DNA of 64,000 nt from Patescibacteria group bacterium (GTDB lineage: Bacteria; Patescibacteriota; Patescibacteriia; UBA9934). The DNA lies in assembly GCA_041659765.1 (NCBI GenBank), contig JBAZXR010000001.1:182923-246922 (forward strand), written 5' to 3'. Positions 6,662-9,499 of the stretch are shown here, piece after piece. Under the pieces are notes generated by a model. It did no database searches, had not been told where the DNA came from, and saw only the letters and a program-made list of their open reading frames with translations. Made by a program: the position numbers and the translations under genes. Within the stretch, counting starts at the first letter, position 1. Every line of letters starts with the position of its first letter.

Positions 6662-9499
6662 CTATCGATTAAGGAAGGCGCGGGTCTGCATGATGTTGCG
6701 GTTCACGATGTCAGAACCAGTCATATCTGAGCCGTGACCGAAGTGCGTGTAGATGGTGGAGGGGATATCTATCACATAGTCAGCCCAGGTTGAGCCGTAG
6801 AGCGTGTTGGCGACTGTTTCGCTCGGAACCCAGCGGAGTGAGACTTCATGCAGGCCATCAAGGCTTGTCTCTAGAGCGTAGACACGCGGGTCGGACACGA
6901 TCTTCACGAGGACCACGCCTGACTTTGGCAACATGGGTTTGCCCATGGTGAGCGTGCTTAGGGTGGCGTCAGTCACCGTCCGAACCGTTGCCCAGGATGA
7001 GTAATGGGTAAAGTATGTTTGAGAATCTTGGAATGGTCGGCGCAATAGGTTGGCATCAATGTAGTAGACGGTCGAGTAGTGCTCACCGCGCAAGACATCG
7101 CCAGCGGAGACTACGTTGATCACTTCTGGCAGGCCAGTAAGTGGTGAGGTGCCGGTACCGGTGGTCGGCTGACTCTGTGGCGGAACCGGAGTAGGCGTAG
7201 CTGTGGTCGTACCAACTATGCTTAGAGTCGAGTCAGAAGTATCGCTGGCCAGGAAGACGCTACCGTCATAGCCTTCAGCTTTTATCCAGACGGTTGAACT
7301 AGTAAGGTCCGGAACTGTCCAGTTGTACGTGCCGCTGCCTGCCAAGTTGGAAGCTATGGCGGTGTACGTTCCACCGGTTGAGGTAGCGTAGGAAAGATTT
7401 GTAGTATTGATGTTAGAGCCTGTCCAAACAATCGAAACTATGTCTCCAGCGTGGTAGACCTGCCCGCCATTGGGCGAATTGACTGCAATGGAATGGGTCA
7501 AAGGCGTGGATGTTCCGCTGCCGGTACCGCCCGCAGTGGTGCAGCTGGTGGTGGTGGTGAATGACCAGTCGCCGGTTGAGGGACCGGTGGTGACAAGCGT
7601 AGTTGGGGAGCCAGCTGACGCGCTGATTGTGGCTTCCGCCGTAGCTACGGTATAGGCCGTGTTACAGCTTAATGTCGGCAGGGCAATAGTGACAATTGTG
7701 TCGCCTGCAGAAAAGACGGCACTTTGTGTGCCAGTTGGGTTTGGGGTGATGGTAAATTGAGTGGCCTCGTTGAACGTCGTGGTCATGGCCTCTGAGAAAG
7801 TGATTACAATAGATGCGGTACGGCTGACGCCGGTGGCGGCGCTAGCTGGCGAGACTGTAGACACGACTGGCGCGGCTAGGTCTGAAATAGTTTCATTGGC
7901 CGTAGCGCCAGTGATGTGGGCGGCATTAGCCACGGTAGCCGCGTCCTTCCATTTAGCCGAAAGATCGCCGGAGATGGCGGTTGAACCGGCGCCTGTGTTC
8001 ACGGTTACCTGCGCGGTTACGCCGGTTACTTGGAGCGTGGCGCTGGCGCCGGCTGGATCAGAGAGAGTGGCCGAACCGAAGGTGGCTGCTGTACCGTCAG
8101 GTAAAAGTGTAGTCGGAAGGTCGGCTGCTACAGGGGCAGCGCCATCATCCGTGTCCACGTTTTCCGACCAAATGTAATCAATACGGTCGATCATACCGTT
8201 AGTGTTTGTGTCCCTAACCTCCACTGTCTTGATGATTGGTTTGGCAGAGTCGGTGAAGGTGAGCTGGGCCTGTGCGCCAACGTAACCAGTGGAATTGGTG
8301 GCGGCATCAACCAGGTTAAAAGCACCGGCCGAGGAAATGGTGAGTGAGGTGGACGCGGTATCAACTACCGTTGATTCAGTACCGAGCGGAACGCTGACAG
8401 ATGAGACTGTGCCGGTGGCTAGATCCGTGCTCCCAGCACCAAAGGCGGCACTAGTGAAATCGCCCACGCCAGTAAGGCTTAGGCTGGCAGCGGTAATTAC
8501 GCTAGAAGCGGTGATGGATTCAGAGAAGGTGAAGGTGAATTGATCAATTTTTCCGTCATTATCACTATCTTCGTAGGCGGCGTCTTTGAGGCTTGGACCG
8601 GCGGCATCAGCAAAGGTAATGCCAAGCGCTCCTAAGGTAGTATTCGTGTTTGTGCCGTCCGTGAGTGAAAAGGCATTCTGTGTGCTAACGGCTATAGCTG
8701 CGCCTCCGTTATTAGTATCTACCACTGTAGACTCTGTACCGAGAGTGATTACTTTGAAAGCCACGCTACCAGTGATGAGGTCTGTGGCGTCCGCACCAAA
8801 AGCTGCACTGGTGAAATCTCCGACACTTGTCAGAAGAAGATCATTGTTAGCAAGAACGCTGGCGGCCGTTACGGTTTCCGAGAACACCACCATGAGGGCA
8901 TCTATTTTCCCATCTGGAGTAACATCCGCATCGCGGTATTCTCCGGCATATATCACCGGAGCTGCACCATCCGCTTCTGTGTTTACTGCACCAGCGCCGT
9001 CCCCGGTAGCAATGGCGTTTAATTCTTCATCGGAGTCACAAATTGAAGGCGTGGCCCCGAGCGTACAAGTACCAAAAGTAACGGCCGTGTAAATAAGTTC
9101 GACCGCGGAAGCGGAAGTATCAATATCCAGATCTGCGTCTCCCTCGTTTAAGTTTACTTGAATGGTGACCGGATTAGCGGCGGCTGCCGAGGTGATTGAG
9201 ACCGAGGCGAGAGCTACATCCAACCCATCGTCCGTGACTGATAGTCCGTAGGGTGACGCGCCCTGGAGGACCCAGGTATCGAGCGAAGTGTTTAAAATGC
9301 TAAAGGTAATGCGGTCGATTTTTCCGTTGGCGTTTGTATCAAGCAGAGTAACTGCACTTGAGGTTGCTCCGTCCACCGCCGCGTGAGCTATCGGCGTCTT
9401 CATGAGCAGTGTTGAAGCGATTGACGAACAAACGAGCGCTATCGCGACGAACGCGAATAAGCGGGTTGAAGACCGGCGAAGTGACGTGGCTATTGGCAT
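6662..9499 (-). CDS. giant secreted repeat protein with the conserved C-terminal ~125-aa domain shared with three other proteins here
   Basis: Track ORF begins at TTG (9511); ATG at 9499 gives signal peptide MPIATSLRR...AHA. Repeated ~100-aa modules start D-x-N/D-G-K-I-D (NGKIDRITF, DGKIDALMVVFSE, NDGKIDQFTFTFSE). C-terminus STVYYIDANLLRRPF...SSWADYVIDIPST. Confidence 0.7.
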   Translation of the reverse strand: MPIATSLRRSSTRLFAFVAIALVCSSIASTLLMKTPIAHAAVDGATSSAVTLLDTNANGKIDRITFSILNTSLDTWVLQGASPYGLSVTDDGLDVALASVSITSAAAANPVTIQVNLNEGDADLDIDTSASAVELIYTAVTFGTCTLGATPSICDSDEELNAIATGDGAGAVNTEADGAAPVIYAGEYRDADVTPDGKIDALMVVFSETVTAASVLANNDLLLTSVGDFTSAAFGADATDLITGSVAFKVITLGTESTVVDTNNGGAAIAVSTQNAFSLTDGTNTNTTLGALGITFADAAGPSLKDAAYEDSDNDGKIDQFTFTFSESITASSVITAASLSLTGVGDFTSAAFGAGSTDLATGTVSSVSVPLGTESTVVDTASTSLTISSAGAFNLVDAATNSTGYVGAQAQLTFTDSAKPIIKTVEVRDTNTNGMIDRIDYIWSENVDTDDGAAPVAADLPTTLLPDGTAATFGSATLSDPAGASATLQVTGVTAQVTVNTGAGSTAISGDLSAKWKDAATVANAAHITGATANETISDLAAPVVSTVSPASAATGVSRTASIVITFSEAMTTTFNEATQFTITPNPTGTQSAVFSAGDTIVTIALPTLSCNTAYTVATAEATISASAGSPTTLVTTGPSTGDWSFTTTTSCTTAGGTGSGTSTPLTHSIAVNSPNGGQVYHAGDIVSIVWTGSNINTTNLSYATSTGGTYTAIASNLAGSGTYNWTVPDLTSSTVWIKAEGYDGSVFLASDTSDSTLSIVGTTTATPTPVPPQSQPTTGTGTSPLTGLPEVINVVSAGDVLRGEHYSTVYYIDANLLRRPFQDSQTYFTHYSSWATVRTVTDATLSTLTMGKPMLPKSGVVLVKIVSDPRVYALETSLDGLHEVSLRWVPSETVANTLYGSTWADYVIDIPSTIYTHFGHGSDMTGSDIVNRNIMQTRAFLNR

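Follow-up and report, generated by a model that had tools for sequence, protein, structure and literature searches.

A two-repeat domain on secreted proteins of Patescibacteria: homology, predicted fold and a candidate role in cell-wall anchoring

Four secreted proteins with one shared domain

The 64,000-nucleotide stretch of DNA analyzed here, referred to as the window, spans positions 182,923 to 246,922 of contig JBAZXR010000001.1 from a Patescibacteria group bacterium (GCA_041659765.1). It has a G+C content of 50% and encodes four secreted proteins that a first-pass annotation had described as sharing a domain at one of their ends. All four open reading frames (ORFs) that it listed are present. 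The first had been placed at 6662..9499; the ORF exists, on the minus strand, but begins at a TTG start codon at 9511, position 9499 being an in-frame ATG four codons downstream. Its product (6662..9511) is a giant of 949 aa composed of a signal peptide, four modules of approximately 120 aa with dockerin- or EF-hand-like loops, a Big_5 Ig-like domain (residues 546-653), a Pro/Thr linker and the shared domain at the C-terminus. The modules begin at residues 58, 196, 315 and 434, and each opens with a D-x-[NDT]-x-[DN]-G-x-I-D loop similar to the calcium sites of dockerins or EF hands, on which the Pfam Dockerin_1 model reaches an E-value of only 0.03. The second giant, of 1448 aa (51041..55387, plus strand), consists of a signal peptide, a repetitive N-terminal region, a Pro-rich linker and the C-terminal shared domain. 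A 396-aa protein (24461..25651, plus strand) has a signal peptide, two weak Ig/PKD-like domains and a Pro/Thr linker that leads into the shared domain, again at the C-terminus. The fourth protein, of 384 aa (25733..26887, plus strand), carries the domain at the other end, between its signal peptide, which is likely cleaved after VFA26, and an acidic tail. This tail (residues ~176-384) is 46% Asp+Glu and contains eight DxDxDGxxDxxD motifs that resemble the calcium-binding type-3 repeats of thrombospondin, although the tail was not matched by the Pfam TSP_3 model at E≤1.

A hydrophobic N-terminal segment resembling a signal peptide is found in all four proteins, and Pro/Thr-rich linkers precede the three C-terminal copies of the domain. 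The first-pass annotation had stated that LPxTG motifs are missing from all four, and this holds for a C-terminal LPxTG followed by a membrane tail: only chance LPxSG-like strings occur internally, and none of the proteins has a hydrophobic C-terminal segment. The combination of C-terminal LPxTG, hydrophobic helix and basic tail that marks sortase substrates is absent from these proteins.

The shared segments align with one another across approximately 140 columns (alignment A1). BLASTP comparisons gave E-values from about 1e-20 to 6e-31 (1e-23 for copies 1 and 4, 2e-20 for copies 2 and 3, 6e-31 for copies 3 and 4), at 33-38% pairwise identity among the copies compared. A hidden Markov model (HMM) built from the four copies and run on the six-frame translation of the window recovered exactly these four and no fifth. 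The HMM envelopes lie at 6665..7123 on the minus strand (copy 1, in the 949-aa giant; 178 bits) and, on the plus strand, at 54950..55384 (copy 2, in the 1448-aa giant; 162 bits), 25208..25645 (copy 3, in the 396-aa protein; 186 bits) and 25799..26242 (copy 4, right behind the signal peptide of the 384-aa protein; 182 bits). The sharing of one domain by four secreted proteins is thus borne out, and the sequence motifs quoted for it earlier are present; in the two giants the longest run of identical residues is the 11-residue WADYVIDIPST. Besides the strand of the first ORF, the length required revision: it had been given as about 125 aa, while the domain actually measures about 135-150 aa and is a tandem duplication of a unit of approximately 60 aa. 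The domain is acidic, with isoelectric points of 4.1-6.2.

Curated libraries did not contain the domain, in agreement with the earlier failure to name it. Searching Pfam-A with the four full-length proteins at E≤1 left the shared domain unmatched, and no significant match was obtained when Pfam was searched with the 37 domain sequences of a family alignment (A2) at E≤10, or with 37 individual repeats. Nor was the domain matched significantly in NCBIfam, in PHROGs or, with A1 and A2 as profiles, in the complete set of PDB sequences. Pfam models of the wall-binding modules SLH, CWB2, LysM, SH3b, GW, ChW, WxL and PG_binding found nothing in the four proteins (E≤1) or the 37 domains (E≤10). Weak library matches to AstE_AspA, NdhS and the 'AVYYC' segment of antibody VH domains were set aside as chance, and a literature search found no paper describing the family. 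The shared segment is therefore a real, previously unnamed domain family, missing from the curated libraries searched (Pfam, NCBIfam and PHROGs).

Family range, architectures and gene neighborhoods

A word-indexed search with A1 returned 310 proteins; all organism names attached to them were those of Patescibacteria or Candidatus Uhrbacteria. When 1.84 billion cluster representatives (50% identity) were searched exhaustively with the A2 profile, 5,793 proteins reached E≤1e-3, of which 2,795 reached E≤1e-30. A scan of species-representative genomes with a single-protein query identified 22 loci, from Uhrbacteria, Magasanikbacteria, Falkowbacteria and unclassified Patescibacteria. Across these and other groups the domain sequences are 35-55% identical. 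In the source records the homologues are called 'hypothetical protein' or are named after a fused cupredoxin.

Among the 22 loci, nine from third-party assemblies are titled 'uncultured Gammaproteobacteria' (L003, L004, L005, L009, L011, L012, L017, L019 and L020) and one 'Bacteroidales'. The Gammaproteobacteria labels look wrong. In a synteny check that covered three of these loci, L005, L011 and L012, with a G+C content of about 30-33%, each shared its gene order with loci labelled Patescibacteria, the proteins being 55-80% identical. We did not count any of the ten titles as evidence of a wider range. The range of the family is accordingly Patescibacteria wherever a source names the organism.

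In IMG/VR, protein scans and a degenerate DNA scan for DGKRYVFPN found one domain-bearing contig, IMGVR_UViG_3300033066_000406 (37.9 kb; L028 / L029). It encodes, near the contig end, a 501-aa signal-peptide protein with the domain at its N-terminus; the adjacent gene encodes a 655-aa protein whose C-terminus is lytic transglycosylase-like. The domain-bearing gene may belong to a phage or to host DNA that flanks a prophage.

Two sequence subtypes are discernible in the family, and they separate copies 1 and 2 of the window from copies 3 and 4. The subtype 'R[RH]PF ... VTDATL ... WADYVIDI ... MKTR' was seen at C-termini and includes both giants, whose copies 1 and 2 carry RRPF. The comparison also drew on hits P0003, P0026, P0027, P0041, P0045, P0058 and P0103; as many matches of this first subtype are gene fragments, a positional preference is not established for it. 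The second subtype, 'DGKRYVFPN ... GGNVTYRPG ... W-N-x2-IDD', is far commoner and mostly N-terminal, and copy 3 belongs to this DG-x-R type.

Domain architectures were counted for 276 domain instances in 267 retrieved proteins, nine of which carry two copies. In 240 of the 276 the domain starts within 70 residues of the N-terminus, right behind the signal peptide; 31 instances are C-terminal and 5 internal. The commonest architecture, of approximately 265 aa, is a signal peptide followed by the domain and a cupredoxin (PF00127/PF13473). Other partners are Big_7, fn3/Pur_ac_phosph_N and Big_1 domains, a chagasin-type inhibitor, peptidase C25, a trypsin-like peptidase, the glycoside hydrolases GH10, GH44 and GH114, cohesin, LVIVD, DUF3048 and CarboxypepD_reg arrays, and many family proteins have no recognizable partner domain. 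One conserved protein of approximately 1,150-1,210 aa carries the domain right behind its signal peptide, with no Pfam or PDB-sequence match over its remaining length. It is syntenic in L005-L014 (e.g. L006:7905-11492) and is also represented by P0134 and similar sequences, and its gene lies downstream of genes for an extracytoplasmic-function sigma factor and a 282-aa unknown protein. This could be a major surface or surface-layer (S-layer) protein of one patescibacterial lineage.

The first-pass annotation had left two roles open for the domain, anchoring or wall binding on the one hand and export on the other, and had proposed a search for secretion or anchoring genes that accompany it. In three homologue neighborhoods and the L006 locus of the 1,195-aa protein, no recurrent secretion, sorting, transporter or protease gene was found beside the domain genes; the neighbors are housekeeping or unrelated genes. 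An export or sorting signal recognized by a dedicated secretion or processing system, in the manner of the C-terminal domains of type IX secretion or of PEP-CTERM, would be compatible with the terminal position of the domain, with the C-terminal location of three of the four window copies and with the MacB/ABC/HlyD-type transporter encoded just upstream of the 396-aa protein gene. However, there is no obligatory C-terminal position of the kind seen in those systems. A normal Sec signal peptide directly precedes the domain in 240 of 276 instances, the domain is occasionally internal, and a positional tag would not occupy both ends of proteins. The module is also globular, of approximately 140 residues, and has no membrane helix or conserved cleavage motif. 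Together with the housekeeping character of the neighborhoods elsewhere, these observations already largely refute an export role, which we regard as highly improbable.

Predicted fold and structural relatives

Alignment of the N-terminal half of A2 with its C-terminal half using hhalign matched 56 columns at an E-value of 5.7e-5, which identifies the domain as a tandem duplication of a unit of approximately 60 aa. Both halves conserve a Lys in strand 1, a Tyr in strand 2, an Arg in strand 3 and a Gly at the end. In A2 and in a further alignment of 98 sequences, the invariant or near-invariant positions are Y16, R24, F27, K70, Y78, L86, E92, A95, G100, W103 and D109.

The AlphaFold2 model of copy 4, calculated with A2, has a mean pLDDT of 93.1 and a pTM of 0.81, and depicts a well-folded globular module. 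Secondary structure assignment with DSSP gave strand-strand-strand-helix-strand-helix twice over, so that each repeat comprises four strands and two helices. Repeat 1 of this copy (25811..25996, plus strand; residues 27-88) carries the motif VYY-x3-DGKRY-x-[FY]-x-N. Repeat 2 (26000..26185, plus strand; residues 90-151) has the same topology and the motif VK-x6-VYAV-x3-G-x-LR-x5-E-x2-A-x2-L[FY]G-x2-W; modelled alone, it retained its structure with a pLDDT of 86.0.

The top structural matches of the model are the repeats of EccB and the cell-wall-binding domains of the endolysins PlyC, LysIME-EF1 and Lys170. Foldseek, an independent method, placed EccB5, EccB1 and EccB3 in the top 11 positions, with a best E-value of 1e-3 and a probability of 0.99. 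Both the two-repeat model and that of the single repeat show the topology of this EccB/PlyCB-like repeat-fold class, whose members are the best matches among solved structures. From these predictions, each repeat of approximately 60 residues appears to share its fold with the periplasmic repeats of mycobacterial EccB and the phage endolysin wall-binding domains. Two structural-genomics domains, 3l9a (Streptococcus mutans, C-terminal) and 3kk7 (C-terminal in a Bacteroides MACPF protein), show no sequence similarity to the family and add no functional information.

The repeats of EccB1 consist of a four-stranded sheet and two helices; they pack against one another and have been described as structural (PMC4769845). 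The patescibacterial domain resembles EccB R1-R4 (PDB 3x3m, 4kk7, 7nps) in its unit of roughly 50-60 residues with this composition, in the tandem arrangement and mutual packing of the repeats, and in being sited outside the cytoplasmic membrane. Its repeat 1 also has the motif YY-x-D/E-x-x-G-x-RY-x-[VF]-PN-x-x-T in common with EccB1 R4. We compared the sequences directly, using an EccB1 sequence verified against PDB 3x3m. The repeat-1 profile matched EccB1 repeat 4 (ESMYYIDPQGVRYGVPNAET) with 10.2 bits, corresponding to an E-value of 3.3e-5 for a single comparison; none of 2,000 shuffled EccB1 sequences reached this score, the shuffle maximum being 5.4. The corresponding hhalign comparison gave an E-value of 1.1e-4 over 23 columns. 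Repeat 2 showed no significant similarity to EccB1 at the sequence level, as 266 of 2,000 shuffles reached the observed score. The match of repeat 1 is thus a short, post-hoc but non-random signal in a structurally equivalent hairpin, and is compatible with distant homology without proving it. It spans 21-23 residues. The Pfam model of EccB, PF05108, gave no significant match: out of 37 family members a single one was hit, at E 0.023, and no isolated repeat was.

Beyond the repeat itself, the two families differ. EccB proteins have an N-terminal membrane helix, a central core domain and four repeats and are encoded in an ESX type VII secretion locus of Actinobacteria. The patescibacterial domain has two repeats and no core domain or membrane anchor, follows a cleavable signal peptide instead, and is a mobile module on unrelated secreted proteins outside any type VII locus; no type VII components were found among the window genes scanned. 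PlyCB and the binding domains of the Enterococcus phage endolysins LysIME-EF1 and Lys170 (PDB 4f87, 6ist, 7d55) show no sequence similarity to the family. They are single, homo-oligomeric units with lytic-enzyme partners, whereas the patescibacterial domain joins two repeats covalently and is mostly combined with non-lytic partners; the association with hydrolases in phages or prophages that marks the endolysin class is not a feature of the family, and the viral collections searched contain almost no members of it. The two-repeat, passenger-swapping form sets the domain apart from EccB as well as from the phage lysin domains.

These structural relatives also raise the possibility that the domain is a protein-protein assembly unit that oligomerizes, or that docks its passengers on an S-layer or membrane complex, and does not bind glycans. 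PlyCB self-assembles into octamers (bioRxiv 10.1101/2021.03.19.436156), Lys170-type domains form tetramers, and the packed EccB repeats are part of the scaffold of the type VII machine. The nine proteins with two domain copies would fit such a role, and the conserved protein of approximately 1,150-1,210 aa could be a lattice protein. Against this, no conserved partner gene lies beside the domain genes, and the conserved solvent-type residues (Lys, Tyr, Arg, Trp, Asp and Glu) in both repeats are more typical of a ligand site. Oligomerization and wall binding are, moreover, not mutually exclusive, as PlyCB does both. We consider an assembly function in place of wall binding distinctly unlikely.

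A candidate non-covalent anchor and its setting

Of the two roles suggested in the first-pass annotation, that of an anchoring or wall-binding module agrees best with the predicted fold and the many unrelated passengers. We favor, with moderate confidence, the view that the domain is a non-covalent anchor that holds the cell's own Sec-exported proteins on its wall, alongside sortase anchoring. The protein would be exported by Sec and its signal peptide cleaved, after which the two-repeat module would bind a polymer of the producer's own wall non-covalently. This polymer would be peptidoglycan itself or a glycopolymer linked to it, and contact would be made through Lys, Tyr, Arg and Trp at positions conserved in the two repeats alike. 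The passenger, whether a cupredoxin, an Ig or fn3 stalk, a peptidase, a glycosidase or an acidic calcium-binding repeat region, would thereby be retained on the surface of a cell that lacks an outer membrane. Wall anchoring appears the most likely function because the module is small and built from repeats, has structural relatives in envelope and wall-binding proteins, is always Sec-exported, occurs at either terminus, behind flexible linkers, and on dozens of passengers, and has several paralogues, as seen in the four copies within this 64-kb window. Together these features characterize the non-covalent wall anchors of bacteria that lack an outer membrane. In being repeat-built, terminal and Sec-exported, with many swappable passengers and several paralogues per genome that coexist with sortase anchoring, the module is similar to the SLH, CWB2, LysM, SH3b, GW, choline-binding and WxL anchors. 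It differs from them in fold, in sequence family and in its patescibacterial range. Repeat-built non-covalent wall anchors and the fold itself are already known; what is new to the libraries searched is the sequence family.

Several points weigh against this view. The domain is acidic, unlike many basic wall-binding modules, the scores of the structural matches are modest, and the same fold mediates oligomerization in PlyCB and the Lys170-type lysins. For EccB, wall binding is a suggestion of the authors (PMC4769845). For the present family we infer it, together with the ligand and the own wall as target, from what the analysis did show: the homology of the four copies, the size of the family, its architectures, the predicted fold and the fold matches. 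Glycoside hydrolase and peptidase passengers, finally, fit the targeting of a foreign wall or substrate equally well.

The last point leads to an adhesin or carbohydrate-binding module with a foreign target, which would dock an episymbiont, or its secreted hydrolases and inhibitors, on a host wall or an environmental polysaccharide. The closest functionally characterized structural relatives are phage-lysin binding domains, which recognize the wall polysaccharide of another organism; PlyCB, for example, binds the polyrhamnose backbone of the streptococcal wall polysaccharide, and its R66E substitution abolishes binding (bioRxiv 10.1101/2021.03.19.436156). The GH10, GH44, GH114, peptidase C25, trypsin-like and chagasin-type partners could all act on external substrates, and the long, stalk-like Ig or repeat regions of the giants, together with an epibiotic lifestyle, would suit an adhesin. 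On the other hand, the cupredoxin fusion of approximately 265 aa, the most frequent architecture, makes little sense on the surface of a host. The giants carry the domain at the far end from any region that could plausibly form a distal adhesive tip, and in most family members it follows the signal peptide directly, as anchors often do. The 35-55% identity maintained across Uhrbacteria, Magasanikbacteria, Falkowbacteria and others points to one conserved ligand and not to diverse host-specific ones. A foreign target is, in our judgment, unlikely. The frequency of the cupredoxin fusion is also our main argument for the own wall as the target of the proposed anchor, as an electron carrier of this type presumably must stay with its own cell.

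The ligand of such an anchor could plausibly be a secondary wall polymer, because LytR-CpsA-Psr (LCP) enzymes of monoderm bacteria attach glycopolymers to peptidoglycan. The window encodes a protein of this family (41079..42314, plus strand; PF03816, E 4.8e-8, 33.7 bits against a cut-off of 24.6), and an LCP enzyme is also encoded in a related genome. A family-4 glycosyltransferase gene lies at 49393..50424. One candidate-phyla-radiation genome is reported to encode the synthesis of dTDP-rhamnose (PMC5220378).

Directly downstream of the 1448-aa giant, the window encodes what looks like a pilin or adhesin-sortase pair (55599..59604). A SpaA-like surface protein of 1138 aa with SpaA_2 repeats (55599..59015, plus strand) ends in LPRTG followed by a hydrophobic and basic tail, and the sortase gene (58969..59604, plus strand) overlaps the end of its gene. 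The 1138-aa protein also contains a long glycine run (GGGGGGNGGGGGGGGGG). Since an LPRTG protein and a sortase are both encoded, covalent sortase anchoring coexists in this genome, and the two-repeat module would be its non-covalent counterpart.

The remaining genes considered here are less directly related to the domain. Just upstream of the 396-aa protein gene, and divergent from it, a minus-strand run of four genes (19262..24259) encodes a HlyD-like adaptor, an ABC ATPase bearing a metal-binding YHS domain at its N-terminus, a MacB-type permease and a multicopper-oxidase/cupredoxin-like protein; together they may constitute an export system related to copper. An NADPH-oxidase-like ferric reductase with Ferric_reduct, FAD and NAD domains (9559..11004) adjoins genes at 10853..13882 (minus strand) for a 620-aa adenylate/guanylate cyclase with a CHASE2 sensor and a 387-aa FecR-domain protein. 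The gene at 17722..19137 (minus strand) encodes a protein of 471 aa in which an Ice-binding-like domain (PF11999) is joined to DUF7507 repeats.

The wall-anchor reading would not startle a specialist. A bolder version of it is possible but, as we see it, improbable: that the module is the main non-covalent surface anchor of Patescibacteria, the counterpart of SLH and CWB2, binding a conserved wall-linked glycopolymer and anchoring the S-layer or major surface protein of approximately 1,200 aa, and that it is truly homologous to the EccB repeats. If so, a core component of type VII secretion would be built from a wall-binding module, which would support the long-held suspicion that EccB tethers the ESX machine to the wall. 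The link is relevant to a question still unsettled for type VII secretion in mycobacteria, the role of the periplasmic EccB repeats, and the wall-binding hypothesis for EccB would gain weight if this fold works on its own as an anchor for dozens of passengers.

Candidate-phyla-radiation bacteria account for a large part of all bacterial diversity. How their cell envelope is structured and formed is still unclear in every one studied to date (PMC5220378). One unannotated module in thousands of secreted proteins would offer a practical handle for predicting their surface proteome, could be used as a probe for labelling cells or pulling down the wall ligand, and merits a curated model in domain databases. 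It would also help to interpret many of the hypothetical proteins in the genomes of Patescibacteria, including the abundant cupredoxin fusions.

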